From IMG/VR virus record IMGVR_UViG_2593339273_000007, positions 10,582-74,581 of that record: a stretch of 64,000 nucleotides of DNA; one strand, written 5' to 3'. The DNA comes from a virus (Duplodnaviria; Caudoviricetes). A model generated the notes under the pieces. The model saw only the letters and a program-made list of their open reading frames with translations, did no database searches and was not told the DNA's origin. A program made the translations under genes and the position numbers. This document shows positions 26,646-41,655 of this stretch, one piece after another. The number at the start of each line of letters is the position of its first letter. Within the stretch, counting starts at the first letter, position 1.

Positions 26646-26841
26646 GTTCATTCCTCCTCGTGTTAAAAATACCATGTTTTTATAATCAATAATATCATAA
26701 TCGATAATTATATTATTGATTATACAGCAGTTAGTGTAATCTAACAAGTCCTGAGTAAAGGTTTCGTATATTTTTCACGCTAACTTCACTGGTATTCCCT
26801 CTCTTTTTAAAACCTTTAATTTTTCCTGTTTTTCTATTCTC

Positions 26842-26913
26842 TCATTTGTAAACTTCTTCACTGACAGGTATAGCTTTCCCTTTGACATAGATGTAATATT
26901 CTTTTTTATCCAT
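26842..26913 (-). pseudogene. 5' remnant of an ICE sigma-70 region-4-like regulator gene
   Basis: Strong AGGAGG RBS, then MDKKEYYIYVKGKAIPVSEEVYK and a stop. This N-terminus is typical of the ICE sigma-like family. Confidence 0.5.
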
Positions 26914-27118
26914 TGTGCGTTCCTCCTTTTTCTGCTCTCTGATTTTGGTTTTTGAGAATAAAAAAGGAGGACTTCTACACTTTGGCGTAAAAAGTCCTCC
27001 GATTACAACAAGGAAATTGTCCTTTGTTGTATGGTCTTTATTCAGTTTTCGGTCTTGATTACTTAAAAATCTTTGTTATTGTTTTCACTTCTTTGTCTCC
27101 ATTCCCATAATACAAATT

Positions 27119-30100
27119 TTACTTTGCGTGTTTTCTTTTTCTAATACCTAACAGAATAAGTAAACTTCCTGAAGCGAACATCAACCAAGCATATAGGGAT
27201 AGGTTTGCTCCATCTCCTGTTTTAGGTAAGCTATTGTTTGTACTTGTGTTTGGTACTTTCGGTTTTTCAGTATTTGGTGGTGTTGGTGGAGTTTCTTTCT
27301 CATTAGTGATAGTAAGCCCATCTTTCATGCTTCCTCCATAGACTACCTTATACTGCTTGCCATCAAATTTAATGGCATTACCATCTTCTCCTACTTCTTT
27401 AACTGTGTATTTGTAGTAGTCTGTACTTCCAAGTCCATTTGCCACTGCAAGATTTTTGAATACTCCGCTCCAGTTATTACCTGCATTTAATTCAAGTGTT
27501 TTTCCTGTAGGATTACCATCTTTATATAGTTCTACGGTAATTTTTTCCGTTGGAGCTGTAATGGTGTTTCCTTTATGGTCTTTCCACAGCTTTGTTACCT
27601 TGACTTCCCTAATTGGAGGTTCCATAGGTGTCCATGGTTTTTCCTTTTGATTAGTGATGGTAAAGCCGTCTTTCATGCTTCCGCTATAACTTACCTTAAA
27701 CCACTTACCATCAAGTTTAATGGAACCTGTTGTTTCTCCGATTTCCTTTACTGTATATTGGTAATAATTGGTGCTTCCAAGTCCATCTGCTACTTCAAGG
27801 TTCTTAAACTCTCCTGTCCAGTTATTATCCTTTGTTAGTTCAAGTTTCTTTCCTGTGGCTACTCCATCTTTGTATAGTTCTACTTCAACTTTTTCAACAG
27901 GAGCAGTTAAAACATTTCCATTATCATTTTTCCATTCCTTAGTAACCTTGATAGTTCTTGTTGGTGGCTCCATTGGTGTCCATGGCGTCTTTTCTTTGTT
28001 GGTAATGGTAAAACCATCTGCCATAGTTCCGTCATAACTTACTCCGAACCACTTACCATCAAACTGAATAGCAGAACCAATTTCCCCTACTTCTTTGACA
28101 GTATATTTATAGTAGTTGGTACTTCCAAGTCCGTCTGCCACTTCAAGGTTCTTAAACTCTCCTGTCCAGTTATTATCTTTTGTCAGTTCAAGTTTCTTGC
28201 CTGTAGCGTCTCCGTCCTTATATAGTTCTACTTCTATCTTTGTATCAGGTATATTGTTTCCTGCAAGAAGGTCCCATGCCTTTGTTACCTTGATAGTTCT
28301 TGTTGGTGGTATCATCGGTGTCCATGGCGTCTTTTCTTTGTTGGTAATGGTAAAACCATCTGCCATAGTTCCGTCATAGCTTACTCCGAACCATTTATCA
28401 TTGAATTGAATAGCTGATCCAACTTCCCCTACTTCTTTAACGGTATACTTATGAATGGTAGGATTTTCTATTGACTCATAGACTTTCAGTTTTTCAAAAG
28501 TTACCGTCCAGTTATTATCCTTTGTAAGCTCTTTTATATCTCCTGTGGCAATTCCGTCTTTATATAGTTCTACTTTAATCTTATCAACAGGAGCTTCATT
28601 CAAATTACTTCCTGAAATGTCTTTCCACTCTTTAGTTACCTTAATATCTCTTGTAGGTGGTATCATCGGTGTCCAAGGGGAAAGTTTTTTGTTGGTAACT
28701 GTTAGTCCATCTTGTGTGTTGCCTCCGTAGCTAACCTTATACCAATCTCCATTAAGCTGAATGGAATTAGCTGTTTCTCCTACTTCTTTTACTGTGTAGT
28801 TATATTCATTTCCTTGTGCATCTGTTTTATCAAGGTCGGTCCAAGTATATGTGGTTGTTCCGTTTGTTAATTCAATCGGACTCCCCTCATTTTGTCCGTT
28901 CTTTAGAAGCTGTAATTTGATTGTCGGATGATTTCCTGTTACACCTTCCCATTCTTTGGTTACTTTTACCTCTGTTTTATCTTGTGTATTCTTAATAATC
29001 CATAAGTTGTCAGATTCCTGTTCATAGGTAGCTGCATAACCTTGCGGAACATTCTTCTCTACCACCTTATATTTAATAAGCGTACCGTCCGCTGTATACT
29101 TATCAAGTCCCGTAAAGGTGTGCTTCCAACCTTCACTTTTCTTGAGTTCATATTCTTTTATTACATCGTTGCTACCTTCAGCTCTAAGCTCTACAAGTAC
29201 AGAATCTCTTTCTGCTCCTATCCATTTCTTTTTTACAGAAACTTCTGTTTTTTCAACATTGGTATTGGTGATAACCCACTTGCCTGTTGGATCTTTTTCG
29301 TAAGAAACTTTATATCCATTTGGAACATTTTTCTCTACTACCTTGTATTTAATAAGCGTGCCGTCCGGTGCGTATTTATCAAGTCCTGTAAAGATATGTT
29401 CCCAATTTTCATTTGCCTTAAGCTCATATTCTGCTACTACATCATTACTACCTTCGGCTTTAACCTGTACGACTACAGAATCACCTGCTGGTCCTACCCA
29501 TTTCTTTTCTACAGGAATATCTACCTTTTCATTATTGGTATTTGTTATGATAAAGCCATCTCCTATTGAACCTGAAATAGATGGAGTATACCCCTGCAAG
29601 ACATCTTTTTCCTCTGCAATGTATTTAATTTCTTCACCTGTTTTAGCATTGTATTTTCTAAGGTTTGTAAAAGTATATTCCCAATCAGGAGCAGACAGTT
29701 TATGTTCAGCAACCGGTACTCCATCTGCTTTCAAAACAACTGTAACTTCAGAACCTACCGGTCCTATCCATTTCTTTTGGACTTTAATGTCTATTTTCTC
29801 CGGTTCGTTTGTGATTGTTTTTATCTCAAGATTATCAGATGTAACGACCACTGTATATTTCGTGTTGTCAACCAAATAATGATCCGGTGCGGCTATTTCT
29901 TCTATTTCATACTCTCCCGGAATCAATTGCATAGTAACAGCTTCTCCATTTGAATCGGTTATGACCTCAAATGTTGCTCCTGAGGCTTTTCTTGTGATTT
30001 TAAATTTAGCATTTTTTAATTTAATTTCTTCATTATCTTCAGCAACTTTAACGATTTTAATCTTGCTCGTTAAATTTCCTTGTCCGCCACCGCCACTTTC

Positions 30101-31081
30101 TGCATCTTGAAACTGACTTTGTACAATTTTCCCTGTTTCTGTGCTTGTAAGTTCAGCTGTATTTTTTAATTTAAGTCCTTGTCTATATGTTGAACGATAA
30201 TGCAGCATATAGGCTTTCCCATCAAGATTTCCCATGCTATAAGTGAAACTTCTTTTATCTGAAGATAATGTGACTTGATTACTTACATTTACAGGATTTT
30301 TTTCAACAGGTTTACCATCTTCAAAGACTATTTCATATAAAACAAACTCACCTGCCACATACTCAATGCCTTCTGGACTTCCCGGATCTTCCACTTCCAA
30401 TGTATCTTTGATAATAACATTGTTCAAATCACCTTGCTTTGCGTTTATTCGGATTCTCCATCTGACCAGACTGTCACTTGTTAATGTTTGCCCTGAAACT
30501 TTATAAAGAATCTCATTTCCATATTGTGGTGGCACATATGGTTTTAATGTAATATGCGGATTAAAAGAACCGACAGCAATTTCGTATTCACCCTCCTGCT
30601 CGACAGGATATGATGTTGTATTCCATCTTGCTGTTAAGTGCATATCTCCAGTTATATTGAACTTATCATTGACATAGCTTGTAAAGGTTACTTTAATTTT
30701 ACCGCCACCGGGTTCTTGCGGTGTAATAACAGCCCTTGCCATCAACTCCCCTGAAGGAGCATTTATATCAAAATTACAGTATGATGACTCTGGTGGAAAT
30801 TTAAACTGATCCGGTAAGTCTATTTCAAAGTAATCTCCTTCGTGTAGTTCATTTCCATGACTTGAAGCATCCCACTTATAGTTCAACTTAAATAATGAGT
30901 TGGAAAAATACCCATCAGGTGGTACAACACCTTCTGAATTTGTGATACTAAAATCTGTAATGTTAACTTGAACTTCCTTGTTCTCCGCAAATACAGTTTC
31001 AATTGGTATAAACATACCTAAAAGCATAACAAAAACTAAGAAGAATGAAGTTAGCTTTTGTATGTTACCTCTTTTTTTCAT
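27119..31081 (-). CDS. cell-wall-anchored collagen-adhesin-like protein (Ig-like A region, CnaB repeats, LPXTG)
   Basis: Signal peptide; repeated VxKxW...YxVxE...ITN CnaB units; LPKTG, TM and RKRKH tail. Confidence 0.92.
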   Translation of the reverse strand: MKKRGNIQKLTSFFLVFVMLLGMFIPIETVFAENKEVQVNITDFSITNSEGVVPPDGYFSNSLFKLNYKWDASSHGNELHEGDYFEIDLPDQFKFPPESSYCNFDINAPSGELMARAVITPQEPGGGKIKVTFTSYVNDKFNITGDMHLTARWNTTSYPVEQEGEYEIAVGSFNPHITLKPYVPPQYGNEILYKVSGQTLTSDSLVRWRIRINAKQGDLNNVIIKDTLEVEDPGSPEGIEYVAGEFVLYEIVFEDGKPVEKNPVNVSNQVTLSSDKRSFTYSMGNLDGKAYMLHYRSTYRQGLKLKNTAELTSTETGKIVQSQFQDAESGGGGQGNLTSKIKIVKVAEDNEEIKLKNAKFKITRKASGATFEVITDSNGEAVTMQLIPGEYEIEEIAAPDHYLVDNTKYTVVVTSDNLEIKTITNEPEKIDIKVQKKWIGPVGSEVTVVLKADGVPVAEHKLSAPDWEYTFTNLRKYNAKTGEEIKYIAEEKDVLQGYTPSISGSIGDGFIITNTNNEKVDIPVEKKWVGPAGDSVVVQVKAEGSNDVVAEYELKANENWEHIFTGLDKYAPDGTLIKYKVVEKNVPNGYKVSYEKDPTGKWVITNTNVEKTEVSVKKKWIGAERDSVLVELRAEGSNDVIKEYELKKSEGWKHTFTGLDKYTADGTLIKYKVVEKNVPQGYAATYEQESDNLWIIKNTQDKTEVKVTKEWEGVTGNHPTIKLQLLKNGQNEGSPIELTNGTTTYTWTDLDKTDAQGNEYNYTVKEVGETANSIQLNGDWYKVSYGGNTQDGLTVTNKKLSPWTPMIPPTRDIKVTKEWKDISGSNLNEAPVDKIKVELYKDGIATGDIKELTKDNNWTVTFEKLKVYESIENPTIHKYTVKEVGEVGSAIQFNDKWFGVSYDGTMADGFTITNKEKTPWTPMIPPTRTIKVTKAWDLLAGNNIPDTKIEVELYKDGDATGKKLELTKDNNWTGEFKNLEVADGLGSTNYYKYTVKEVGEIGSAIQFDGKWFGVSYDGTMADGFTITNKEKTPWTPMEPPTRTIKVTKEWKNDNGNVLTAPVEKVEVELYKDGVATGKKLELTKDNNWTGEFKNLEVADGLGSTNYYQYTVKEIGETTGSIKLDGKWFKVSYSGSMKDGFTITNQKEKPWTPMEPPIREVKVTKLWKDHKGNTITAPTEKITVELYKDGNPTGKTLELNAGNNWSGVFKNLAVANGLGSTDYYKYTVKEVGEDGNAIKFDGKQYKVVYGGSMKDGLTITNEKETPPTPPNTEKPKVPNTSTNNSLPKTGDGANLSLYAWLMFASGSLLILLGIRKRKHAK
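27300..29800. repeat. intragenic CnaB tandem repeats (two sub-families, ~345 bp and ~276 bp)
   Basis: Long near-identical DNA blocks, e.g. around 27770 vs 28118 and 29050 vs 29326; PWTPMxPPTR linkers. Confidence 0.85.
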
Positions 31082-31356
31082 CTGTTTTCTATCTCCTTCC
31101 TTTGTTTATTGCTTCAATCTCTGGAAATAAACTTAGACTTTAAATGTCAATAATGTTAGACTTTGCGTGCCATTTTCTGGTATAATGATTAAAATAGGTT
31201 TGTTGTGTGATTCACTATGGATTTGACGACTTTTGGTAGATGTTAGGCAGCACTTAATTTATAGGTTTTTGTCTGTAAATTAAAGTCTACTTTTTTTGAC
31301 GATTTACTACAATTATATTTTGATTACGACTTTTGAACCTTATCACAGGTTCTTTT

Positions 31357-31962
31357 TCATTTTTCTCTTGTATATCCTCTTTCCTTCAGCCAGTTGGAAA
31401 AGGTAGTATGGCTTACACCAAGTTCTTTGGCTCCGGCTCTTAAGCCTATTTCTTTTTTGCTCCATTTATTAGCCATATTCTCAAATTCTTTAGGAATATC
31501 TTTTTTACTTCTGCCGAATTTTACTCCTCTTTTCTTGGCTTCTCTTATCCCTTCCATCTGTCTTTGATGGGTATTTTCTCTTTCTATCTGAGCTACATAG
31601 GATAATATCTGTAAGACAATATCGGCTATAAACTTTCCGGTTATATCACTTACCTTTGTTCTTGTATCAAGAAGAGGAAAATCAAGTACGATGATTTCAG
31701 CATTTTTCTCTTTGGTAATTAGATTCCATTCCTTAATAATTTCATCATAGTTTCTTCCCAGTCTGTCTATGGATTTAATATATAGCTCATCTCCCGATTT
31801 TAGTTTTCTGATGAGCTTTTTATATTTCCTGCGGTTAAAGTCTTTCCCGCTTGCCTTGTCGATATAAATTTTATTCATTTCTACTCCCTCTTTCAAAATA
31901 GCAGTTAATTGCCTGTCTATATTTTGTTCCTTTGTCGATACTCTAATATATCCGTATTTCAT
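31357..31962 (-). CDS. small serine recombinase (resolvase/invertase)
   Basis: YGYIRVST, DKASG, SIDRLGR, GVKFGR, C-terminal HTH. Confidence 0.93.
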   Translation of the reverse strand: MKYGYIRVSTKEQNIDRQLTAILKEGVEMNKIYIDKASGKDFNRRKYKKLIRKLKSGDELYIKSIDRLGRNYDEIIKEWNLITKEKNAEIIVLDFPLLDTRTKVSDITGKFIADIVLQILSYVAQIERENTHQRQMEGIREAKKRGVKFGRSKKDIPKEFENMANKWSKKEIGLRAGAKELGVSHTTFSNWLKERGYTREK

Positions 31963-32144
31963 ATATATCCCTCCGTTTCTTTATTCATAAATTAGATATT
32001 ATACGGATACCTTAAGAAAGACCTTTTTATTTTTGAAAAAGAAAAAGAAGCCTTTTGGATTTTGTTATCCATTGAGCTTCTTTGATTCTTACTCTGTAAG
32101 TTTATGAGGGTTATTCTGCTTTAACAATCTTAATTTTTACTTCC

Positions 32145-32402
32145 TTGACAACAGTTCTATAGTCACACACCCTAAAAACACCTTAAAAACAATAGTCCTG
32201 TTGTTACACCAAGCAAAAAAAGTAGTTCTATTGCTACGACCTCTGATTTCCCAGTGGTCAGAACTATTGTCAAACGCTCTAAAATCATAGTATAAACTCG
32301 TTGTCCAAACTTCTGTATTTTTCTCTAAACCTTTTGATTTCAAGGCTTTTCTATGCTTTTTTTCCTTACTTTCTTGACAGAAGAACTATAGTCTCCACAT
32401 GA
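32145..32402. repeat. 258-bp element-end repeat, copy 1 (att end of the ICE)
   Basis: Aligns with 34313-34570 at a constant 2168-bp offset; minus strand 32401-32366 reads HVETIVLLSRK*. Confidence 0.92.
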
Positions 32403-32642
32403 GATTATTAGGCTATTTTGGAAAATTAAATATCTCTGCAAAACCCATTGATTTTATCATAACTATAACATTTCTATTGTTTCAATCATATAATTTTTGA
32501 TTAGGCTATTTTACATAATATAGAAATTATTAATCTTTTTCAGAGATTTATCGCTCGAAATATCTACCCAGCATCAACTGACATTTTTTAATTTGCATAT
32601 AGTCGCAACTTTAAAATAATAATATACTTATTTTCACTAAAC

Positions 32643-33263
32643 CTATTTTAATTTATCTGCAGCCGGATCCACTTCATACCAATGTTCTGAATTTCTTTTA
32701 CACTGTAATGCAGCCACTCTTTTTGTAACTTCACGCTTTATTTTTCCATCTGAATTTAATACATCTATCCACTCTACTGGTTTATTGAAGTATTTCATTT
32801 TTCCACCACATATAGGACATTTTTCAATATGAATTTTTTCTATTGTAATCTTCCTTCCAAGTCCACTTATCGCATAATTAAAGAATAAGGGGTGTCTAGT
32901 TTCTTTTTTTGTGATACTCCTTAACCAGAATATCAGCACCAAAACTAGCATTGTTACAGCAAAAATTACGGCATATATATTATTGTTTGTGTTAACTTGA
33001 TTACTCTTGTTGGTCAATAAATTAATTACAGGTTCAAATGTTTTATACATTGGAAAAACCCCTATCAATGAAATGAAAAATCCCATCCATGAAAGTAATG
33101 CCATTGTTATAGGACTTCTCCAAACAGGATCTGGTGTATATTTCGCAATCCTATCTTCTTCATGTTCACTAAATTTGTTATTTCCTGTCACGATATTAGT
33201 AGGTCCATTAAAAACATTTCCTGAAAAATTATTAATATTTGACTTAGAATATTTATCTCCCAT
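32643..33263 (-). CDS. hypothetical protein with two TM helices and a C-terminal CxxC..C..H Zn-ribbon
   Basis: AGGAGG RBS before ATG 33263; two hydrophobic segments; CPICGG...CKRNSEH. Confidence 0.75.
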   Translation of the reverse strand: MGDKYSKSNINNFSGNVFNGPTNIVTGNNKFSEHEEDRIAKYTPDPVWRSPITMALLSWMGFFISLIGVFPMYKTFEPVINLLTNKSNQVNTNNNIYAVIFAVTMLVLVLIFWLRSITKKETRHPLFFNYAISGLGRKITIEKIHIEKCPICGGKMKYFNKPVEWIDVLNSDGKIKREVTKRVAALQCKRNSEHWYEVDPAADKLK

Positions 33264-33276
33264 ATGTATCCTCCTA

Positions 33277-34221
33277 TTATTTTCCTCTCTTCGAGCTATA
33301 TTTTTTATTCTTTCTACGCACTGTTCCATCTTCTAAAACTTCCACATTGCTGCGGGACTCCATCTCAAGTTGAACTGCTTCAAATTGCTCTTTTGATATT
33401 ATTCCCTCATGGTGTTCCTTATTCAAATACTGATTCTCGGAGCCGCCGGAATCAGCAATTGCCACATCTCCTGTATACTTCTGCCTTGTTAATGTGGATT
33501 CAATTCCTTTTTTGCTCCAGCGTTCTTTTCCTTTTGGCGATTTAATACCGTTTGTTTCCAATCTCTTTATAATTCCACCTATGCTACACCCCTCCAGATA
33601 CCAATTAAAAATATCTCTGACGACTTTAGCTTGTTCGTCATCAATAACTAGCATTCCATATTTATCTTTTTTGTATCCATAGCAAGGACGATTATATAAT
33701 CCTGATGTACCGTTCTCTGCTTTCCTCTTCAGCCCCCAACGTATATTTTCACTTCTCCATTCATTCTCAGACTGTTCACAAGCTTCAATCACACTTATAA
33801 GCAATTCATCGCCTATTGCTTCTGTGTCAATCTTATCTCGTTCAAAAATAATTCTTTTGCCCGCTGCACGAATCTTTCGTATGGCTTCCAGACATTCCTG
33901 TGTGTCACGTCCAAAACGACTAATACTTTTTGTAAGTATAATATCGATATTTCCTTTTTCACATTCACTTATCATTCTATTGAATTCTATTCTTGATGTT
34001 CCTGTTTTAGCAGAAGCAACATCTAAAAAAATATCTGCTACAAACCAAGTCCTATGAGCTACCGCCAATCTAGTGAGTCCTGATACTTGTGTAGACAAAC
34101 TTTCCATTTGTTCCTTACGGTTTGTACTCACACGAGCGTAGATACCAACAGCATAATCCTTAATCACTCTACGAGGTTGTATCACTGTTATATTTTCATG
34201 AATTCTATTTAGTTCATCCAC
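33277..34221 (-). CDS. large-serine-recombinase family protein (resolvase + recombinase domains, no Zn-ribbon/coiled coil)
   Basis: GIYARVST, TKSISRFGR, SENIRWG, CYGY, YTGD, HEGIISKEQFEAVQ. Confidence 0.92.
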   Translation of the reverse strand: MDELNRIHENITVIQPRRVIKDYAVGIYARVSTNRKEQMESLSTQVSGLTRLAVAHRTWFVADIFLDVASAKTGTSRIEFNRMISECEKGNIDIILTKSISRFGRDTQECLEAIRKIRAAGKRIIFERDKIDTEAIGDELLISVIEACEQSENEWRSENIRWGLKRKAENGTSGLYNRPCYGYKKDKYGMLVIDDEQAKVVRDIFNWYLEGCSIGGIIKRLETNGIKSPKGKERWSKKGIESTLTRQKYTGDVAIADSGGSENQYLNKEHHEGIISKEQFEAVQLEMESRSNVEVLEDGTVRRKNKKYSSKRGK

Positions 34222-34312
34222 ACTCGAGTCCCCTTTCAAATTTAGTATAATTAAATTGCTAATTTAGCATAATGATTATTAGTCTATTATCGTAATTCTT
34301 AATCAAAAAAAT

Positions 34313-34570
34313 TTGACAACAGTTCTATAGTCACACACCCTAAAAACACCTCAAAAACAATAGTACCGTTGTTACACCAAGCAAAAAAAGCAGTTCTGTT
34401 GCCACACCCCTCTATTTTCCAGTGGTCAGAACTATTGTCAAATGCTCTAAAATCACAATGTAACCCCTCTGTCCAAACCTCTGCATTTTTCTCTAAACCT
34501 TTTGATTTCAAGGCTTTTATACAACTTTTCTTCTTACTTCCTTGACAGAAGAACTATGGTCTCCACATGA
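34313..34570. repeat. 258-bp element-end repeat, copy 2 (junction with the prophage)
   Basis: Direct repeat of 32145-32402; 34569-34534 encodes HVETIVLLSRK* in frame with the phage tail gene. Confidence 0.92.
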
Positions 34571-35526
34571 ACACTATATTTACCACCTGACCATGTATGT
34601 TTATCTTTATCAATATAGAACTCTCCAACTAATCCTGTAAAGCTATCCTTAACCTGTACCTTGTAGCCACATTTACAATCTATATTGCCAAATCCTGAAA
34701 TACTACAAGTTTTTTCAGGACCCTTTAATTCATTTTTAATTTCATCATCAGATAAAGCCTTATCCTTTCCTTGTTCAATAACCTTAGTTATATAATGATA
34801 TAATTTTTTTAGCTGTGGATCGATTTTTTCTTTTACCTTGTTTCCTTTTTCATCAACAACCAATACCCTACTTACCATATCATTCATCGATATTTTATAG
34901 CTAGCTGATTCTATATTGCTTGACTCCTCAAACATAAGCTTCAATTTAACTATACCTTTTTCAACGACGTTAAACTTATCCAAATCAACTTCAATCATGT
35001 ATTTTTTATGAGCTTTATCTTTCTTAGAATGCTCTGTATACGCACTCATTATAACATCATATCTAGTAGCACCAATAAACAGCTTTGTAATTTTAGTTTC
35101 AGCAGGTGCAAGCTTACCATAAGCTAAAGCATGTTGACCGTCTTTTCCCTTAAACACCGCTTTTGCAATATCACAAGCTGTTGTGTTTACAAAATTATAA
35201 CTTACTTGATCCTTACTCAATAAGAAGCCTATATCAAAAGCCGTCATAGATAGACGATTATCTGTATTTGATTTATCAATATCTATTATAGTTCCTCTGA
35301 ATATCTCTTTTCCACCTACATAAAAACAACAAGTAGAGCCTTCTACTATACCTATTTGTTGTATTTTTGAGTCATTTACTGCTTGGATAAATGAAAACTC
35401 CAAACACCTAGATGGGGATTTAATATCCCCACTCCAGGTAACAGATGATAGTACGCTAGATAGTTTATAAAATTTACCTTGTCTAATGTGAACTATTAGT
35501 TCTATGTCTTCATTTTTATACTTCAT
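34534..35526 (-). CDS. XkdQ/YqbQ-like tail/baseplate hub protein; last 11 residues supplied by the element att
   Basis: VTWSGD..RCLEF, AFDIGFLL, GYKVQVKD..GEFYIDKDKHTW; follows the LysM gene. Confidence 0.85.
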   Translation of the reverse strand: MKYKNEDIELIVHIRQGKFYKLSSVLSSVTWSGDIKSPSRCLEFSFIQAVNDSKIQQIGIVEGSTCCFYVGGKEIFRGTIIDIDKSNTDNRLSMTAFDIGFLLSKDQVSYNFVNTTACDIAKAVFKGKDGQHALAYGKLAPAETKITKLFIGATRYDVIMSAYTEHSKKDKAHKKYMIEVDLDKFNVVEKGIVKLKLMFEESSNIESASYKISMNDMVSRVLVVDEKGNKVKEKIDPQLKKLYHYITKVIEQGKDKALSDDEIKNELKGPEKTCSISGFGNIDCKCGYKVQVKDSFTGLVGEFYIDKDKHTWSGGKYSVHVETIVLLSRK

Positions 35527-36206
35527 TAAGGTATCACCAACTTCCAACCACTATATATTACATTAGATTTTTTTAATTGTGGGTACTTCTTTAAATTCTC
35601 TGCATTTGATGTTATCTTTTTATATTTAGAGCCATTACCGTAATATTTCTGTGCAATCATAAATAGATATTCACCATGCTTTACAGTATGTATTTTAGAG
35701 CTTTTACTTAACTCATTTTTTTCTAGGTTTCTCGAATACACTTTATTTGGAACTGTATTTGATGGATTTGAACTCTTTGAGGTGTTCGGAGGTGTCCATT
35801 CTGGAATAATGATATCTTCATCTTCCTTTAACTCTAATGTGAAATATACATCCCCACTTCCATCTTTTTCAAGAAACTCAAAATGGCTTATTCTTACAGG
35901 TATGTTAATAGGTGTCGATGTCACAATATATCTAAGTCTTTCCCCATCTCTACACCATTTTTCTAGCTTATTAACGTAACTATATGGGTCTGTTGTAGGT
36001 CCATCTATAAATTGATAATTAGCACCCTCATGTGGGAAAAAACTGGATAAACTAATCGAGGAAGGCTCATATCCATTAAAGATATTTACCTTCCCTTTTT
36101 TTACTATATTTTCCCCTGAGATATCAGCATTGATATTTTTCCCTATCTCTGACGGTATAACCGGAAATCTTAAATTTTCAGTATTTGAATTTAGATATAC
36201 TTCCAA
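35526..36206 (-). CDS. XkdP-like LysM-domain tail protein
   Basis: FPVIP, LSSFFP, GDVYFTLELKE; LysM HTVKHGEYLFMIAQKYYG..IYSGWKLVIP. Confidence 0.88.
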   Translation of the reverse strand: MEVYLNSNTENLRFPVIPSEIGKNINADISGENIVKKGKVNIFNGYEPSSISLSSFFPHEGANYQFIDGPTTDPYSYVNKLEKWCRDGERLRYIVTSTPINIPVRISHFEFLEKDGSGDVYFTLELKEDEDIIIPEWTPPNTSKSSNPSNTVPNKVYSRNLEKNELSKSSKIHTVKHGEYLFMIAQKYYGNGSKYKKITSNAENLKKYPQLKKSNVIYSGWKLVIP

Positions 36207-36209
36207 GTT

Positions 36210-38159
36210 TTATACACCCCCTGCTTTAGCCAATTTCATTCTTTTTACAAGTCTACTAACTAATAAATCAATATCGGCTTCTTCTCTTACTGTAATATCA
36301 TTTATATTTATCACAATACGTTCTTGATCTCTATTTTCATACTCATTTGCCTCTCGTTTTGTCAGTAATTTTTCCCCTTGATGAGCTCTAATTGGGTAGT
36401 TGTCATAGGGTATTCTTGACTGTCCCATAGCTCTTCTCGCATATGAGGGTACTCCACTGTTGTCTACACCTATGCCACCGCTACTACTGCCTGTTTGGAA
36501 ACCATCTAAGCCATTAAGCCCCTCAAAGTTGGTATTTCTCATATGATTGATAGTTTTATCCCACCATTGCATAACATCTTTTAATGCGCCAACGATACCG
36601 CTGATAGCATTATTAATCCCAGTTAATAGTGGTAATATTACTTTATCAGCAAGTTTAAGTTTCACCTGCATTAATTGCCATTTTTTCTCCCAATCAGATG
36701 CCAATAATTTTATTGCATTTTTTATAAAATCAGGATTTTCTTTCAAAAATTTAAACACATCTTCAGCTACACCTTTGAAAAATTGGAATACATCCCCCAT
36801 TCCTTCAAATGCACCATTTACCTGTTGACCAAACATATTTATGGCTTCTTGTGCTTCCGGAGAATTAGTAATAATATGATTATAAACATCATCCAGCATA
36901 TCCGTTATTGGCTTCGCTGCCGTTTTTAGCTTACTAAAATCGATACCCCCAAAATTAGTAATATCTAATAACTTCCATAGTCCGTCAATAGCTTTTTCTG
37001 CATCTGTAAACAAACCGCTAAAGAAATCCTTAACTATTTGACTGTCGAAAATCTTTTGCATTCTTTCATACATAGGTGTATATACTTTTGATTCTAGTAA
37101 GTTATTTGCTATTACCCAAGCATCTTTGAAGTTCATAGGTATATTTTGGAATTCTTTATTTACCTGTTCTGAATTTTTAAGAATTGCACGTTTAACTAAA
37201 TCAGCAGTAAGAAGACCCTCTTTCCCGGCTTCCTTAATGCCCATTCCAACTTCTTTTTCAATCATTTTCGCCATTAGTGGAGCTGACTCCCTTATCGTTC
37301 TAAGTTCATCACCTTGGAGTGTACCACTTGCCAAACCTTGATTTAACTGATACATTGCTGAACTTGCTTCTTCTCCTGATGAACCACCTTTTCTAAATGA
37401 TTGCATAGCAGTTTGGTAGAATTTAGCAGCTTCTTGAGGTTTACCGCCAAACACATCAGGTGACATCTGCATAAGCTTAGTCATACCATTTCTAACATCA
37501 GATAAATTTGATCGTGAATTTCTAGCTACACCCTGGACTAGACTATCATATCCACCAATACTCATACCACCTCTATCAAGTGAACTTGCCCTAGCTTTGT
37601 AATCCGAATAATTATTATATCCGTCAATTGTAACTTTTATGACCTTATCTTTAAGGCTATTAAGACCTTGCTGAATCTTCTGTATTCCCCATTGGGTCAT
37701 ATCGTTTAATTTCACTTTAATATCGTTATATGCACTTTTAGCAAGTTTCCCAATCCCAAGGCTTATCAATCCTATTCCAGCCAACACGGGATGTTTTCCT
37801 AAAAGTTTAAGTGGGATACTTCCAAGTGGTCCTAGCTTATTAAGCTTACCACCGATGGCATCCAACCCTTTAGATGCTAAATCTTTTACTTCAATAGGTA
37901 TCTTATTCGATTTTTTTATCATATCACCAAAAGATTTGTACTTCTTTGATACTTCATCAACTTGTTTTTTAGCATCCTTACCATCCACTTTTAATTTTTT
38001 ATTACCTTTCAAGCTCTTATCAAATTCCTTATTGGCTTTTTCAATTTCTTTCGTTTCCTTTTTAAATTTTCTAAGCTCCGCTTGCATCCGCTTTAATTCT
38101 TTAGTCATTAAATCTTCAGCTTTAAACCTAGCTTTCAATTCTGTTGTATTTGTTGCCAT
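36210..38159 (-). CDS. tape measure protein
   Basis: AMYQLNQGLASGTLQGDELRTIRE tape-measure motif; position after the chaperones. Confidence 0.9.
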   Translation of the reverse strand: MATNTTELKARFKAEDLMTKELKRMQAELRKFKKETKEIEKANKEFDKSLKGNKKLKVDGKDAKKQVDEVSKKYKSFGDMIKKSNKIPIEVKDLASKGLDAIGGKLNKLGPLGSIPLKLLGKHPVLAGIGLISLGIGKLAKSAYNDIKVKLNDMTQWGIQKIQQGLNSLKDKVIKVTIDGYNNYSDYKARASSLDRGGMSIGGYDSLVQGVARNSRSNLSDVRNGMTKLMQMSPDVFGGKPQEAAKFYQTAMQSFRKGGSSGEEASSAMYQLNQGLASGTLQGDELRTIRESAPLMAKMIEKEVGMGIKEAGKEGLLTADLVKRAILKNSEQVNKEFQNIPMNFKDAWVIANNLLESKVYTPMYERMQKIFDSQIVKDFFSGLFTDAEKAIDGLWKLLDITNFGGIDFSKLKTAAKPITDMLDDVYNHIITNSPEAQEAINMFGQQVNGAFEGMGDVFQFFKGVAEDVFKFLKENPDFIKNAIKLLASDWEKKWQLMQVKLKLADKVILPLLTGINNAISGIVGALKDVMQWWDKTINHMRNTNFEGLNGLDGFQTGSSSGGIGVDNSGVPSYARRAMGQSRIPYDNYPIRAHQGEKLLTKREANEYENRDQERIVININDITVREEADIDLLVSRLVKRMKLAKAGGV

Positions 38160-38162
38160 CTA

Positions 38163-38357
38163 CTACCCCCTTTCTCCCACCATAAAAGGGCAAAGTTGAT
38201 ATTTTTTCTCGTCTAATCTATCTTCTATTTCTTTGAATAGAAATGCCTTCATCATTCTATATTCACCAATATCTGATTTCTTTTTTTTATATAATTCAGA
38301 TGGAGTCAGTCTTGCGTACTTCCAGAAATAGTAAAAAGTACGCAATTCATCATCCAC
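38163..38357 (-). CDS. tail assembly chaperone C-terminal extension (gpT-like, reached by -1 frameshift)
   Basis: In the -1 frame behind slippery A AAA AAC at 38372-38366. Confidence 0.7.
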   Translation of the reverse strand: MDDELRTFYYFWKYARLTPSELYKKKKSDIGEYRMMKAFLFKEIEDRLDEKKYQLCPFMVGERG

Positions 38358-38362
38358 CTCAA

Positions 38363-38800
38363 TTAGTTTTTTATTTCATCTTCCTTTGGTATATTATTAA
38401 TTAAATTATCATATGCAGCATATAATAAATCTATTTCGTCTGGGGTAAGCAAAACTAATACGAGATCAGTTGGTGTCCCTACCTTAAACTTGCTTATAAG
38501 TTCTTTATTTTTAAATAGTGCTTCACCATTATAGAATACAGAATAAACTAAAGTCAGCAACTTTCTCATCCTATTATTTTCAGCCATTTCTAGCTTCCCT
38601 TTGTCTGCCATCTTAAGCTTGTAACCATACTCTTCAAGCTCTGCTTCTTGCTCCAAACTCATCCTACGCATTTCAATGATAAAAGGTTGATTAAACATTC
38701 TAGACAAGCTATCTATTTCTATTTCCTCTTTTTTAACTAAAAAATCATCTCTATCTTTACTAAGCAATAAATCAATCAAATTAACATTTTTTTCACTCAT
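38363..38800 (-). CDS. XkdN-like tail assembly chaperone
   Basis: NLIDLLL start, ends EIKN*; lies between tube and tape measure. Confidence 0.82.
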   Translation of the reverse strand: MSEKNVNLIDLLLSKDRDDFLVKKEEIEIDSLSRMFNQPFIIEMRRMSLEQEAELEEYGYKLKMADKGKLEMAENNRMRKLLTLVYSVFYNGEALFKNKELISKFKVGTPTDLVLVLLTPDEIDLLYAAYDNLINNIPKEDEIKN

Positions 38801-38811
38801 TTTTTATCTCC

Positions 38812-39258
38812 TTATATCAAATCTATTGGGTCAAAATCATCAAATGTAAATGGGGCTTCTATTTTTCCAACCTCTCCATTTTTAAAGTCAGCAAGGGTTA
38901 AGTCATCAAATTGCACTCCCATATATCTAATTCTTTCAGCTCCCACATTATCAGGGTCATCAAGCTTAGATATAATTTCAAAACTAATTGTTTTTTGCTC
39001 TTTCATTCTAACACCAATCAACTTTGTCATTCTTGATGAAACCTTAGTCATAGTGCAAGACCCTTTACCCTCTGCTCCTGTTGTTTTATGGGCGTCTATC
39101 ATTTGTCTTGGTCTTGGTATTGCCGTCTTTTTAAAATCTATTTTAGCTTGAAACCCTTCAAGTTCTGCAACATATTCCCCATCTAACCACAGCTCACCGA
39201 AAGTACCACTTATACCATCAGTACCTAGTATCTGTTTTACTTGTTCTTTATCTGCCAT
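38812..39258 (-). CDS. XkdM-like tail tube protein
   Basis: GTFGELWLDG, SKLDDPD..GAER, FDDLTLADF, EAPFTF. Confidence 0.9.
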   Translation of the reverse strand: MADKEQVKQILGTDGISGTFGELWLDGEYVAELEGFQAKIDFKKTAIPRPRQMIDAHKTTGAEGKGSCTMTKVSSRMTKLIGVRMKEQKTISFEIISKLDDPDNVGAERIRYMGVQFDDLTLADFKNGEVGKIEAPFTFDDFDPIDLI

Positions 39259-39271
39259 ATTTAAGCACCTC

Positions 39272-40372
39272 CTAAACATTTATATTTATATAAAAATCTT
39301 CCATAGCATCCACGCCCTTAAGCGTTATCACTATAAAAACTTTTGAACCAGTATTAAATTCTTTAAGCTCCTGTTCACTCAAAGATTTTACATCAACACC
39401 CTTTTCAATCAAATATTTTTTTTGTGCTTCCATATCAATATTTACAGAAAATCCATTTGCTATCATTTCACTTCTGTTCAAATCCTCTAAAAATCCTTTT
39501 ATTTCAGATATCAGCAAACATTTATTATCATAGCTATTAGATACCTTACCTACATAAAAATCGGTAATGGACTTTTTAACAGCGTTATTAATCATCTTAT
39601 ACGTTCGTACTAGCTTTATTTTCTTGAAAGTTTCTCCTTCATTTCCATCAACGCCAGTTAGAGATGTAACACCTCTGGCTATTCTTACTTTACCGCCTTT
39701 TTTTACGAGTACCAACTTACCAGCATTTATTAAAGAGTTCAATTCTTCATTAGTTTTTTTAGGTATATTAGTGATGAACGGCACATTGCAATATGTTATG
39801 GATTGTGTAAAAGGTGTACCTGCACACGCACCAACGATAAAAGGCAATAGTTTATTGGCAGTGTAGGTAACTGAACCTTCCTTTATATTATCTGTCGCAA
39901 ACTCAATCACACTACTTGAATTACTTGGATTATTTGTTGCTATTACAACATCCGCCCAATGTCCTATTTCCTTAAGTTTGTTAATGAATGCTATTAGCTT
40001 TGGATTTTCAACCTCGTCTGTAGCATCAGGCATACACATATAATTGAATTCAACATTTTCTAATACCTCAAGTGCGTTATCTAATGTATCATCACTACCT
40101 ATTGAATATACAATAACCTTTGATGGTGTGTACGCTCTTTCCTCAAGCACCCCACCTACTCTCACATCCTGAATATTACCTTTGAATGCGTGCTCTATAT
40201 ACATAAGATTATCAGATTTATACTTTTCAGTTACTTGATCAAATGACACGTATTCTTTCAAACCCTTAACAGTTGAGTCCTTTAATATCAAAAGAGCCAC
40301 ACTAGTACTAGCACCTTCTAATGCTCTTCTTTTTTCTTCTTTGAAACTAATTTTTAACTCAGTTAGCCCCAT
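39272..40372 (-). CDS. XkdK-like tail sheath protein
   Basis: RIARGVTSL, FKKIKLV, YVGKVSNSYDNK, DAMED. Confidence 0.9.
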   Translation of the reverse strand: MGLTELKISFKEEKRRALEGASTSVALLILKDSTVKGLKEYVSFDQVTEKYKSDNLMYIEHAFKGNIQDVRVGGVLEERAYTPSKVIVYSIGSDDTLDNALEVLENVEFNYMCMPDATDEVENPKLIAFINKLKEIGHWADVVIATNNPSNSSSVIEFATDNIKEGSVTYTANKLLPFIVGACAGTPFTQSITYCNVPFITNIPKKTNEELNSLINAGKLVLVKKGGKVRIARGVTSLTGVDGNEGETFKKIKLVRTYKMINNAVKKSITDFYVGKVSNSYDNKCLLISEIKGFLEDLNRSEMIANGFSVNIDMEAQKKYLIEKGVDVKSLSEQELKEFNTGSKVFIVITLKGVDAMEDFYININV

Positions 40373-40862
40373 TTTTTACCTCACTTTCTATTTTTAATAC
40401 GTCACTACTACGCATTCTTATAACTTCAATCACATTACTATCATTTTTATCAAAATATACCTGTTCATGATAACTTGTTTTAATGCTAAAATTCAAAGTA
40501 TACCCCACTTCATCTTTTAGTATCAAAGTGTCAATATCGGATATATGAATATATCTTCTACCAACCTTTATACTTCTTACAAATTGAGTTTCTAACAATT
40601 CTTTGATTTCATTTAAATCGGATTTTTTAACTCTACCGTGTGGGAAGTATCGTATGTCAATTACAAGTGATTTTTTATTAAAGTGTAAATTTACTGATTT
40701 TGAATTTTCTATATGAACATCAATAAAAAAACAGCTACCTTTATTTAAATATAATTGTAATTGGTCGTCATCATCTGTTATTTTACATTTATAGTCAGTA
40801 TCCTTTATGGTCTCATAAATCATAGATGATACTGATTTAATCAATTCATTTATCTTAATCAT
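40359..40862 (-). CDS. tail terminator-like protein
   Basis: Position before the sheath; CFFID..IDIRYFP motif. Confidence 0.65.
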   Translation of the reverse strand: MIKINELIKSVSSMIYETIKDTDYKCKITDDDDQLQLYLNKGSCFFIDVHIENSKSVNLHFNKKSLVIDIRYFPHGRVKKSDLNEIKELLETQFVRSIKVGRRYIHISDIDTLILKDEVGYTLNFSIKTSYHEQVYFDKNDSNVIEVIRMRSSDVLKIESEVKNGAN

Positions 40863-41323: not shown

Positions 41324-41655
41324 TATACTCTCTCCTTCAGCGTTACCGGAATCTCTAAATGTGACGCCCACTTAAAAGGTATACCTGCCACACAATCATA
41401 TACACGACCTAAATGAGTTATAACAAGTTTATCACCCTCTATAACATCTTCTTCAGGTCGTGTATACACTGTATAATCAATAACTATTTCATTATCGTGA
41501 TATCCTGTGGTCGCCTTATCTAGTTCACAAAGCACATTAGATTTAATAGTTTGTGGCTTCATTGTAGTTAAGTGTGAATCATCTTCTATTTCCATGTGTC
41601 TAATTATATCCATTCTATCATGGTAGGTACTTGCCAATATGTCTGATTCTCTCAC
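41323..41655 (-). CDS. head-tail adaptor/closure protein
   Basis: Position; EGDKLVIT..AGIP..SHLEI. Confidence 0.7.
   Translation of the reverse strand: MRESDILASTYHDRMDIIRHMEIEDDSHLTTMKPQTIKSNVLCELDKATTGYHDNEIVIDYTVYTRPEEDVIEGDKLVITHLGRVYDCVAGIPFKWASHLEIPVTLKERV

Follow-up and report, generated by a model that had tools for sequence, protein, structure and literature searches.

Mobile elements that insert at the 3′ end of rumA have been described in streptococci. The vanG elements and ICE-r are serine-recombinase insertions within the last 11 codons of this gene (Srinivasan et al. 2014, PMC4120198). As described there, they are 45-kb ICE-like units that occur in tandem (vanG plus ICE-r), have homologous left ends and translationally replace the C-terminus of RumA. 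The crossover target reported for rumA elements is the GA in GAG (PMC4120198). In streptococcal ICEs, attR lies inside the integrase gene and the 3′ ends are reciprocally exchanged (PMC4701971, PMC4120198). Single serine integrases target rumA; serine-integrase triplets target other genes, disrupting them with 2–8-bp repeats (PMC5704250; Ambroset et al. 2016, PMC4701971). The rum 3′ end is also occupied by a temperate prophage, Phi-m46.1, with an 18-bp core over the H-V-E codons (Giovanetti et al. 2015, PMC4288039). Finally, site-specific accretion produces tandem ICE/IME/CIME arrays, whose members can be prophages or decayed elements as well as ICEs and IMEs (Guedon et al. 2017, PMC5704250).

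The DNA studied here is a stretch of 64,000 nucleotides, referred to as the window. The locus is an ordinary pile-up of mobile elements and not an ICE inserted in a phage. The 3′ end of the host type-1 rumA, which encodes a 23S rRNA m5U methyltransferase, is best read as an integration hotspot with stacked elements. One of these is a prophage, and it is probable, with some reserve, that it sits in the hotspot by means of the tyrosine integrase on contig C7 and that a deletion onto attR, through a short homology, later removed its right arm. This would distinguish the locus from the accretion arrays described in PMC5704250 and PMC4701971, since a deletion with one end in an att site appears to have removed the distal half of the prophage here.

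The prophage remnant spans 34570..64000 on the minus strand, as defined by Pfam matches, and the contig stops at 64000 in a repeat shared with contig C32. The minus-strand order is replication genes, terminase, head, sheath and tube, tape measure, a LysM protein and a tail gene, while the lysogeny module lies on the plus strand at 59.8–64.0 kb (Pfam). Baseplate, fiber and lysis genes are absent from the remnant, and the right-arm genes of its relatives have no close homolog in genome G000. Apart from two distinct prophages, the assembly contains no homolog of the lost tail-gene half or of the baseplate module, and neither a reciprocal junction nor a phage right arm was found in the genome, which is scored 100% complete. 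As the rest of the prophage is missing from the genome, excision of an element is unable to restore the tail operon, and the prophage is a dead, defective remnant. In contrast, Phi-m46.1 is an intact, inducible siphovirus (PMC4288039); the window phage is truncated and myovirus-like (sheath and tube), comes from another host genus and has an integrase that was assigned indirectly.

The remnant ends in a 337-residue fusion ORF (34534..35547, minus strand): 326 codons of a YqbQ/XkdQ-like tail protein followed by 11 rumA-type codons, HVETIVLLSRK*. The ORF matches the Pfam family YQBQ (PF24032; E 8.8e-40) over residues 36–329 and profile positions 1–292 of 294. The tail gene is broken mid-gene and not at its 3′ end, as relatives encode 658–678 residues, comprising the YqbQ domain and cell-wall hydrolase domains, and read ...HTWSGGKYTVDLELNFDNIMDEK... 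The fusion ORF is without the C-terminal ~330–350 residues that carry the hydrolase domains. Thus, the initial annotation was correct that a rumA-type end is fused in frame to a baseplate-type tail gene; the cut would have been made mid-gene by a deletion, and the end was not grafted on by an ICE.

HVETIVLLSRK* occurs twice on the minus strand, at 34569–34534 and 32401–32366, with mismatches at 2 of 36 positions; both coordinates and both translations given in the initial annotation were confirmed. Its assignment of HVE(T/C)... to the RumA C-terminus also holds: the two host RumA-family genes end in ...HSVHVECVALLTRNCNDFKY (C7) and ...STPHVETIALIQRAKL (C13), and HVE lies ~10–17 residues before the C-terminus in 18/18 RumA sequences of the genus. 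The 36-nt motifs are the opening of a longer direct repeat of 258 bp: copy A at 34570..34313 and copy B at 32401..32144. These are 88.8% identical over 260 nt by BLAST and ~89% identical over the 258-bp repeat, for which the alignment was made with MAFFT. According to BLAST, the 2.28-Mb genome contains just these two copies.

At the phage/rumA-type joint lies a 17-nt sequence, ATAGTGTTCATGTGGAG (34561..34577, minus strand), that is identical to the 3′ end of type-1 rumA on C7; nowhere else in the genome is the C7 att region matched as well. The first 8 of the 17 nt (ATAGTGTT, 34570–34577) are also native tail-gene sequence; this 8-mer has a per-position frequency of 2.7e-5 in the genome and probably served as a short homology at the joint. 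The native phage sequence here is ...GTT|GATTTAGAA..., and the window has CATGTG where the intact phage reads GATTTA. Phage and element are therefore separated by 6 or more nt of rumA-side arm (CATGTG), and the tail gene is joined to this short arm and not to the end of an element. The putative duplicated attL/attR core consists of the 17 nt common to the C7 attL and window positions 34577–34561, of which the left 8 nt are equally attributable to the tail gene. The C7 attL also has 14 nt (CATGTGGAGTGTGT) identical to the S. agalactiae attB given in the Phi-m46.1 study (PMC4288039).

Next to the joint is a mini integrative element, E (32374..34569, minus strand), which consists of a leader, a short serine recombinase, a gene for a protein called p206 and a right arm ending ...AAAATAGCCTAATAATCT. 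The element is 2,168 bp (2.17 kb) between equivalent points of its left site, S1, and of site S3. A 3884-bp contig from two bovine-gut metagenome runs of one study contains exactly 32374–34569, with 7 differences in 2,196 nt and other flanks, an indirect sign that E may excise and integrate. The surroundings of E were surveyed in 10 informative related loci, window counted. In six of them (L087, L088, L089, L091, L092 and L096), E is preceded on its left by a complete rumA reading frame (...DMFPxTxHVE...); in three (L090, L093 and L094), by the right arm of another element; and in the window only, by phage. The family thus inserts within the last ~11 codons of genuine rumA in 6/10 loci and brings a replacement 3′ end; the window copy is flanked on the left by a phage gene plus a rumA-type arm of 6–36 nt. 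Judged by these flanks, E is a discrete, rumA-specific element. This bears out the proposal in the initial annotation that rumA-type att ends from mobile elements are stacked here in tandem with involvement of a serine recombinase.

Site S1 is a 28-nt rumA-type block, CATGTGGAGACCATAGTTCTTCTGTCAA (34542..34569, minus strand), that holds the serine-recombinase crossover; its first 6–8 nt are the left, rumA-side arm. Following the right arms of elements, the first 6 nt are CATGTG in 6/7 cases and CATGTT at L090:9340; following rumA, they are CATGTC, CACGTC or AATGTG in 3/6. These 6 nt thus travel with the left flank, which places the crossover to their right, in agreement with the GA-in-GAG target of rumA elements (PMC4120198). 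Since the window reads CATGTG and the phage GATTTA at these positions, the joint is not the crossover. Copy-to-copy comparisons place the crossover within the block partly at GA and partly at TGTCAA.

The short serine recombinase, rec320, has 314 residues (33277..34221, minus strand; GTG start at 34221), and the listed ORF begins at a TTG at 34239. It contains a Resolvase domain (PF00239, E 1e-27) and a Recombinase domain (PF07508, E 1.8e-22), and its PDB matches include 3g13, 3bvp and 9dxh. The zinc-ribbon domain (PF13408) is not matched even at E<=1, whereas it is matched by SR524, a recombinase of the large ICE explained below, and by the neighboring rumA-type 567-residue recombinase of L036, to which rec320 is 34% identical over 279 residues. 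A coiled-coil domain is also absent, as the protein ends straight after the recombinase domain. Thus, rec320 shares the catalytic and recombinase domains of the large serine recombinases (TP901-1 and the SPbeta YokA type) but has neither a zinc-ribbon nor a coiled-coil domain. Its close copies have stop-to-stop frames of 324–340 residues (7 readable: six loci and the window), while 23/23 of the distant relatives checked (32–39% identity) have 424–686 residues and CxxC.

The second protein, p206, has 206 residues (32643..33263, minus strand), two predicted membrane helices and a C-terminal CxxC zinc-ribbon-like motif, and could be assigned to no family. A motif scan found it in 3/9 related loci, and in two related copies of E, the DNA between recombinase and right arm is too short for it. 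Hence, p206 is optional cargo of E.

When compared to the streptococcal elements, E is far shorter: its family measures 1.5–2.2 kb, against 45 kb for vanG and ICE-r (PMC4120198). The latter have a recombinase gene of 547–549 codons that spans the right end and is fused to 11 rumA codons, and a replacement end that is a 115-codon fusion (PMC4120198); E has a 314-residue recombinase without zinc ribbon, an internal gene and a replacement end of 11 codons plus stop. Ten streptococcal integrases are also described as being without the zinc-ribbon domain (PMC4701971). Neither an attR within the integrase gene nor a reciprocal exchange of 3′ ends was found in E, whose right end lies ~240 nt downstream of p206. 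In contrast, the gene for the neighboring 567-residue recombinase in L016 and L036 has attR inside it, with reciprocally exchanged 3′ ends.

The leader of E, copy A (34313..34570, minus strand), is made up of the rumA-type end, a repeat region of ~220 bp and a relic second rumA-like end (..CVTIELLS). A motif of ~16 nt (TTGACAAYAGTTCT-like) recurs in both orientations in the ~220-bp part, and the leader has no match in Rfam. The zinc-ribbon/coiled-coil domain of large serine recombinases normally reads the att sites and sets directionality, and the att right-half-site motif is densely repeated, in either orientation, in the 258-bp leader. We tentatively suggest that the E family may be a group of minimal, "integrase-only" integrative elements (1.5–2.2 kb) for the rumA 3′ end, in which the recombinase shed its zinc-ribbon/coiled-coil part, the leader compensates for the loss, and spread among Firmicutes genera took place in tandem with rumA ICEs.

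Leader copy B (32144..32401, minus strand) begins with the second HVETIVLLSRK*, which is site S3, and finishes with CVTIELLSRK*, a relic site designated S4. S3 comes directly after the right arm of E, and leader B forms the left end of the resident DNA that follows. This DNA, called M (26025..31962, minus strand), lies behind leader B and is a candidate member of an element. By Pfam, it encodes a 201-residue resolvase (31357–31962), a 1320-residue Cna_B/collagen-binding surface protein (27119–31081) and a TetR regulator (26025–26747), all on the minus strand. A paralogous cassette of a resolvase and a giant adhesin is found on contig C17.

Positions 1..25864 (minus strand) are the left part of an ICE of ~108 kb with a serine-integrase triplet, which extends past the window. 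Its genes in the window include ParA/ParB, RepA_N, TraG/VirD4, TrbL, PrgI, VirB4-like, a methylase, a CHAP hydrolase, AbiE, a topoisomerase and the start of an ORF of ~3,900 residues. The triplet is at C21:96.9–132.2 kb and consists of SR576, an interrupted second gene (with a 505-residue frame) and SR524. One CDS separates it from the target gene, an arrangement described in PMC4701971. A further ICE is nested in an integrase gene of the 108-kb ICE. The target is an ABC/ECF-type ATPase gene, whose 59-codon 5′ fragment (25834..26013, minus strand) is cut in the Walker-A codons (..GESGCG|DNAIMMTVQ*). The attL is at ~25,863–25,866 (about 25,864), and the same junction is present in G071; the attR is at about C21:95,560, where the ATPase frame picks up again (GKSTLLRCLNHL..) at ~C21:95,559. 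GG is common to both att sites, and the target gene is disrupted. Judged by these junctions, the large ICE targets Walker-A codons and not, as the initial annotation had supposed, rumA. Triplet targets named in PMC5704250 and PMC4701971 include mutT, traG and hsdM; the ATPase gene is not among these three.

To which integrase does the prophage belong? On C7, a tyrosine integrase gene (384–1634, plus strand) faces rumA on the opposite strand, which ends ...HVECVALLTRNCNDFKY*. Integrases of the C7 type convergent to rumA are also found in G066, G062, L161 and L166, and one of this family adjoins a type-2 rumA in G030. In the metagenome contigs L161 and L166, small lysogeny genes on the phage side match the window at 59.5 and 61.8 kb, a weak similarity of 78% and 44–45% at the amino acid level. 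A repeat (96%) is common to C21 and C32 at their right ends, and a different one (99%) to C1 and C7 at their left ends. The tail of C1 carries the last codons of guaA and abuts the guaA end of C33, while the outer end of C32 has a displaced guaA end and a 13-mer common to the C1 tail. Further, C32:1–155 is 92% identical to a site ~30.6 kb from the guaA-prophage integrase of G060, which is itself 97.7% identical to the C1 integrase. Thus, the C32 prophage goes with the C1 integrase at guaA, which by elimination would leave C7 and rumA for the phage of the window. No k-mer overlap joining C21 and C7 was found. The far end of the array, which should hold the displaced native rumA end, was likewise not found; the genome has four HVE-type ends only.

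The evidence from G060 points the other way, as a 98%-identical counterpart of the M78-SNase lysogeny gene of the window phage stands directly beside a C1-type (guaA) integrase there and not beside one of the C7 type. Taken alone, this arrangement opposes the C7 link, which would then require module exchange between the two prophages. It also leads to the best of the alternatives: that the prophage was located elsewhere, for example at guaA as in G060, and that a larger rearrangement (inversion, translocation or large deletion) made the joint through the same 8-nt homology, which it could use equally well. We regard this as unlikely. Both rumA paralogs are intact except for their replaced ends, and the assembly contains no rumA-5′::phage-right inversion product. 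In G060, guaA and the two rumA genes are ~260 and 345 kb apart on one contig, and a deletion would cost much chromosome. In addition, the guaA att system is tied to C32 and not to C21.

Less likely still is the off-target event put forward in the initial annotation. Here, a rumA-targeting element (E, or E plus the DNA and ICE behind it) would have been placed by its serine recombinase into a secondary site in the tail gene, with later loss of the distal junction and the phage right half. Secondary-site integration by rumA-type elements is on record, as two streptococcal elements are found in sstT (PMC4701971). Through the GA dinucleotide, the native phage site and the rumA site agree at 13/16 positions (ATAGTGTTgATtTaGA versus ATAGTGTTcATgTgGA), and in three metagenome runs of one study, phage and element are separate, with breaks exactly at 34569|34570. 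However, a crossover at GA should leave ...GTTGATTTAGA|G..., whereas the window reads ...GTTCATGTGGA|G..., so that the left arm is of rumA type and not phage: rumA-side CATGTG stands between the phage and the crossover. The right end of E runs into a rumA-type end instead of phage, the large ICE has an unrelated target of its own, and a second, unrecorded deletion is required. The annotation had named a lack of phage sequence beyond the far ICE end as a refutation of its model, and the assembly indeed contains no continuation, reciprocal junction or phage remainder, be it at that end, at the far end of any other element or at another place. Since the remainder of the phage is gone from the genome, its viability is not tied to ICE excision.

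That the joint is an assembly chimera of a complete prophage and a rumA array is barely credible. The assembly is indeed fragmented, with 37 contigs and breaks at prophage repeats. However, the likely source run, X1, has also been assembled independently from k-mers, and that assembly bridges the joint with even depth; the 8 nt common to both partners are too few to mislead an assembler, and no contig carries the right arm that a complete phage would have. The bridging Logan contig (8463 bp) spans 34489–37500 with 0 differences and reaches 81 nt past the joint. The word depth is ~450 on either side, and no alternative loose end at 34569/34570 exists in the Logan contigs of this run. As far as contigs, as distinct from raw reads, can show, the joint is not an assembly artefact, and the misassembly at 34570 that the initial annotation allowed for was not seen.

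For the favored history, that is, entry at rumA followed by a local deletion, we infer the following array along the direction of rumA transcription (the minus strand of the contig). It would start with rumA and the convergent tyrosine integrase (C7), followed by an unassembled repeat, the window prophage, the remnant of a rumA-side att arm, E (2.17 kb), and leader B with the resident DNA, split by the 108-kb ICE in the ATPase gene. HVETIVLLSRK* is present twice because one rumA-type replacement end comes with E and another with the DNA behind it. The prophage would have entered the hotspot upstream of E and its neighbors by its own tyrosine integrase, with a core overlapping the HVE codons, and the predicted attR is (phage right arm)-ATAGTGTTCATGTGGAG-(old rumA-type end and E). 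Subsequently, the two copies of ATAGTGTT, one in the tail gene (codons Y-S-V) and one in attR (rumA codons H-S-V), may have been joined by a deletion of ~10 kb, due either to illegitimate recombination at this short homology or to integrase action at a secondary site. Lost with it would be the half of the tail gene with the hydrolase domains, together with the baseplate, fiber and lysis genes and the right arm of the phage. As the two 8-mers share a reading frame, the tail ORF now runs into 11 rumA-type codons and ends with them. A local deletion also predicts that there is no reciprocal junction and no phage right arm, exactly as seen.

The idea of an ICE inside a phage gene, with the phage dependent on ICE excision, fails and should not be carried into the annotation. 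At such loci, the att pair belonging to every element should be found before a target is named, and it should be established which arm owns the bases adjoining a joint. For integrase research, modest leads come from the triplet ICE that targets Walker-A codons and from the family of short serine recombinases. The locus itself is a worked example of hotspot growth: one stretch of 210 kb contains a prophage, the mini element E, an adhesin/transporter island and two ICEs, the 108-kb one and another nested in its integrase gene. In such a setting, 8 bp of homology between a tail gene and an att core would be sufficient to kill a prophage, leaving behind an in-frame chimeric ORF that resembles a designed graft.

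The sequence HVETIVLLSRK* is encoded twice on the minus strand, at 34569-34534 and at 32401-32366, and each motif opens one copy of a 258-bp direct repeat (copy A, 34570..34313; copy B, 32401..32144). The copies are 88.8% identical over 260 nt, and there is no third copy in the 2.28-Mb, 37-contig host genome. The first motif is in frame with a YqbQ/XkdQ-like tail protein gene (PF24032, E 8.8e-40), giving a fusion ORF at 34534..35547 on the minus strand. The initial annotation had described both motifs and the in-frame fusion; these are borne out, and a contig of X1, the probable source run of this genome, bridges the joint. HVE lies near the end in 18/18 RumA C-termini read from the genus. The tails beyond HVE are very different and some are common to paralogues, which is the signature of replaced ends. 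The host's own RumA-family proteins end in ...HSVHVECVALLTRNCNDFKY on contig C7 and ...STPHVETIALIQRAKL on contig C13, and the whole genome holds only four HVE-type ends.

Between the two motifs lies a mini integrative element of 2,168 bp, here called E, with two genes: rec320, for a short serine recombinase, followed by p206. The rec320 product has 314 aa with Resolvase and Recombinase domains and is without a zinc ribbon. The 206-aa p206 protein has two hydrophobic helices and a CxxC motif without a family assignment, and a protein-atlas search with it returned unnamed zinc-ribbon clusters only. In G072, a genome of the same genus, the pair is found at 80% identity between two rumA-type ends of a different sequence type, HVECVVLMS(R/K)VAPTK*. 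Here, it lies 40 kb downstream of rumA and directly behind a 567-aa serine recombinase, the gene of which overlaps the first rumA-type end with its 3' end.

A scan for rec320 using one genome per species gave 40 loci, of which 12 reached 66% identity or more, and left junctions were compared at 10 informative loci, the window included. To the left of E, six of the ten (L087, L088, L089, L091, L092 and L096) have a complete rumA frame that continues into the motif, three (L090, L093 and L094) have the right arm of another element, and one, the window, has a phage gene. The right end of E always reads ...AATAG(C/T)CTAA(T/A)AAT(C/T)T and is followed by a further rumA-type end and leader-like sequence. 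In addition, a 3884-bp contig from two bovine-gut metagenome runs of one study contains 32374-34569 with 7 differences and has other flanks on both sides. Given the rumA left flanks of related loci and this near-identical copy in other surroundings, E is, on sequence comparison, a discrete, recently mobile and rumA-specific mini element. Another copy, with a recombinase identity of 96%, is located in rumA of a Peptostreptococcaceae genome; in this copy, the recombinase gene and p206 are separated by an insertion of ~1.56 kb (L089:6960-8520).

The idea that p206 is an obligatory zinc-ribbon partner of rec320 was rejected: a motif scan found p206 in only 3/9 related loci, and in two copies (L088 and L090) the stretch from the recombinase gene to the right arm is too short for it, so that p206 is cargo. 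The stop-to-stop frame is 324–340 aa in seven close recombinase copies (six loci and the window), three further close loci having no readable frame and being left out of this length comparison. The distant relatives (32–39% identity) are all 424–686 aa long with CxxC (23/23), and rec320 aligns to residues 8–281 of the neighbouring full-length recombinase with 34% identity. A rumA element of 1.5–2.2 kb with a zinc-ribbon-less recombinase has no mention in the available portions of the related literature compared, and unpublished status is not claimed.

Each leader, that is, the 258-bp sequence opened by a rumA-type site, contains a second rumA-like end (..CTGTTGTCAA). These second ends were considered as true junctions bounding a 220-bp mini-unit and rejected, as homology among seven aligned leaders fades past TGTCAA; they are thus relic rumA-like ends in a conserved leader. 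The leader (window 34313-34561 and copy B) also has at least four copies of a motif of ~16 nt (TTGACAAYAGTTCT-like) in both orientations. One copy falls within the HVETIVLLS codons and one within the relic end (CVTIELLSRK* in copy B), and the motif is kept in leaders of five other genomes. An Rfam search of 31900-34700 gave no match.

The initial annotation assigned these ends to a rumA-targeting ICE. There is indeed a large ICE, which occupies window positions 1-25,864 and extends for a further 82 kb along contig C21. It encodes ParA/ParB, RepA_N, TraG, TrbL, PrgI, a VirB4-like protein, a CHAP hydrolase, AbiE, a topoisomerase, an ORF of ~3,900 aa, a relaxase with NikA, a DtxR-like repressor, an NRPS cluster and ABC transporters, as well as three serine integrases, the middle gene of which is split by a high-GC ICE. 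Its backbone is also present in G071 (left end, 98%; SR524, 94%). At the left junction an ATPase gene is cut in its Walker-A codons, reading ..GESGCG|DNAIMMTVQ* here and ..GTSGSG|DNAIMMTVQ* in G071, and the host ATPase frame resumes (GKSTLLRCLNHL...) at C21:~95,559, behind ...ACATTGTAGG. No rumA-type end exists at the far end of the ICE. Both junctions thus lie in Walker-A codons and the ICE does not target rumA. Triplet-integrase ICEs are described as disrupting genes, with 2-8-bp repeats and sometimes a CDS between triplet and target (PMC4701971). This ICE fits them in behaviour as far as the accessible part of that source describes it; its Walker-A target is not among the targets in that part, and unpublished status is again not claimed. 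As the ICE has its own target, the resolvase, Cna_B adhesin and TetR genes (26.0–32.0 kb) and the transporter genes on the far side of the ICE are other resident DNA, which starts with leader B.

Several features of the ICE and its surroundings were observed in passing. The interrupted gene is an ABC/ECF ATPase gene (GESGCG|...|GKSTLL, window ~25,834-26,013 and C21:~95,560) holding 108 kb of ICE, and in G071 the 98%-identical end interrupts a different ATPase gene at its Walker-A codons (G071:C1:~96,940). The high-GC conjugative element (C21:~100,000-130,190; L010, L013) has its own 587-aa serine recombinase and lies within the middle triplet gene, the N-terminal ~85 codons of which are left at C21:130,190-130,445. 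The NRPS-type cluster (L001:1-4950 and L002; C21:137-162 kb) is located between the relaxase and the integrase triplet and comprises condensation and AMP-binding enzymes, a thioesterase, a PPTase and the DtxR-like repressor; its thioesterase/PPTase stretch is 83% identical in the G071 ICE. An AbiEii/AbiEi toxin-antitoxin pair is found within the ICE at window 3852-5289. Beside the relaxase gene, at L001:5113-5162, is a sequence of ~50 nt with an inverted repeat (GTAAGTGCATATGCACTTAC), copies of which (84–88% identity) are found beside elements with a relaxase in numerous genomes of the genus; it is probably an oriT. In the resident DNA, a 201-aa resolvase is followed by a giant surface adhesin (window 27119-31962, 1320 aa, Cna_B), as at G000:C17:45,020-52,017 (1978 aa). 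The two resolvases are 86% identical, and the pair may be a mobile or invertible cassette.

On the other side of the joint, a prophage occupies the sequence from 34,570 up to the end of the contig. The prophage has its lysogeny module and replication genes, together with genes for terminase, head, sheath and tube, tape measure and a LysM protein. Its tail gene is cut: relatives are 658–678 aa long and read ...HTWSGGKYTVDLELNFDNIMDEK..., followed by hydrolase domains. A 10.8-kb contig from a bovine-gut metagenome run is 96% identical over 34570-35947 and runs past 34570 with DLELNFDNIM. When the genome was searched with the right arms of three relatives, the C-terminal half of the tail gene, the XkdR/S/T/U-like genes, the fibres and the lysin of this phage were missing. 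The best matches were distinct prophages on contigs C32 and C36 at 26–57% amino acid identity, except for a lysin-like gene on C36 (74%), and each of these prophages has its own complete tail module. The C36 prophage was rejected as the missing half, being separate and complete. The phage had been expected to resume at the far end of the ICE; no continuation was found, the outcome named beforehand as speaking against that claim. Close relatives were also sought in the G059 prophage, the viral contigs L077/L078, G062, G030 and G066, which offer the tail-gene region or integrase plus rumA only.

The window joint reads ...GGTAAAT ATAGTGTT CATGTGGAG ACCATAG.... The native phage at this position reads ...ATAGTGTT GATTTAGAA... 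(native form ...GTT|GATTTAGAA...) and the host type-1 rumA on C7 reads ...CCAC ATAGTGTT CATGTGGAG TGTGTTGCC.... The 17-nt identity between window and C7 rumA is the best genome-wide match to that C7 region, and ATAGTGTT has a per-position frequency of 2.7e-5. Read from these alignments, the tail gene (Y-S-V) and rumA (H-S-V) were fused at the joint through short homology, which accounts for the fusion being in frame.

The rumA gene on C7 has a convergent tyrosine integrase ~60 nt past its stop. Homologues occupy the equivalent rumA position in G066, G062 and two metagenome contigs, and one lies beside type-2 rumA in G030. Relatives in viral contigs reach 36% only, and those in metagenomes at best 72% and 55%. 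Phage Phi-m46.1 is described as inserting at the rum 3' end with an 18-bp core that covers the HVE codons, rum being termed a hotspot used by various elements (PMC4288039, available part). The window spans C21:177446-241445, and its position 64000 is where the contig stops. Contig C21 ends because of a 300-bp repeat common to two prophages: the right ends of C21 and C32 both stop in it (96%). The repeat (window 63,699-64,000 and G000:C32:30,191-30,491) corresponds to the start of a gene that opens with MTTLFEVAKNFLDREPS... and, in both prophages, lies a little upstream of the expected integrase position. The starts of C1 and C7 have 124 nt in common (99%), upstream of integrases that differ between the two contigs. 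The last guaA codons are found in the C1 tail, which abuts the guaA end of C33; at the outer end of C32 are a displaced guaA end and a 13-mer that recurs in this C1 tail. In addition, C32:1-155 is 92% identical to a site ~30.6 kb from a 97.7%-identical integrase of a guaA prophage in G060. The guaA codons, the 13-mer and the G060 match tie C32 to C1. This second, myovirus-like prophage at the guaA 3' end is apparently complete (G000:C32 with C1, C33 at its right end, and C11), with its replacement guaA end (..EWE*) located on C1 and the displaced one, located on C11, adjoining a type III CRISPR-Cas locus and an IS200-like gene.

By elimination, with C32 tied to C1, the phage of the window probably belongs with C7 and rumA, its right arm having been lost by a local deletion onto attR. 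The 17-mer would then be a remnant of the phage attR. One local deletion between two ATAGTGTT copies would explain why the two genes are fused, why the right arm is missing and why no reciprocal product exists. Two findings count against C7: a C21–C7 link was not assembled, and in G060 a 98%-identical lysogeny gene of this phage lies beside a C1-type integrase. The native flank downstream of rumA was sought by synteny in G061, which is too rearranged to define it. The C7 assignment predicts a phage attP core with ATAGTGTTCATGTGGAG, or at least TTCATGTGGAG, beside a C7-type integrase.

A larger rearrangement through the same ATAGTGTT homology is an unlikely source of the joint. Less likely still is off-target integration by an element, as the initial annotation proposed, followed by loss of the phage remainder, even though secondary sites of rumA elements, like gene-disrupting triplet-integrase ICEs, are already described in the accessible part of PMC4701971. 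At other loci, the first six motif bases vary with the left flank (CATGTC, CACGTC or AATGTG in 3/6 cases after rumA; CATGTG after 6/7 element right arms), which places the serine-recombinase crossover to the right of these bases. For rumA elements, the target is given as the GA of the GAG codon (PMC4120198, in part), and comparisons within the 28-nt block favour GA in some cases and TCAA in others. With either crossover, the phage is joined to a rumA-side arm and not to an element end, and a crossover in the phage site would have given GATTTAGA. A crossover exactly at the phage joint (CT|CATG) was rejected, as CAYGTN variants follow the left flank. The stacked rumA-type ends of the initial annotation stand; rumA as the ICE target and the phage at an element end do not.

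An assembly chimera is highly improbable, as a mere 8 nt are common to both partners; an 8463-bp contig from Logan's contigs of X1 (an independent assembly, though of non-independent data, and contigs rather than raw reads) spans 34489-37500 with 0 differences and extends 81 nt beyond the joint, and in X1 word depth is ~450 on either side with no loose end at 34569/34570. For the runs X2–X4, stretches without cover do not count as absence.

Tandem insertion at rumA is known from vanG with ICE-r (PMC4120198), and ICEs, IMEs, prophages and decayed elements have already been described as accreting at a single target (PMC5704250), in the available parts of both sources. The locus is most plausibly an accretion array at the rumA hotspot, containing a prophage that would have been killed by a short-homology deletion.
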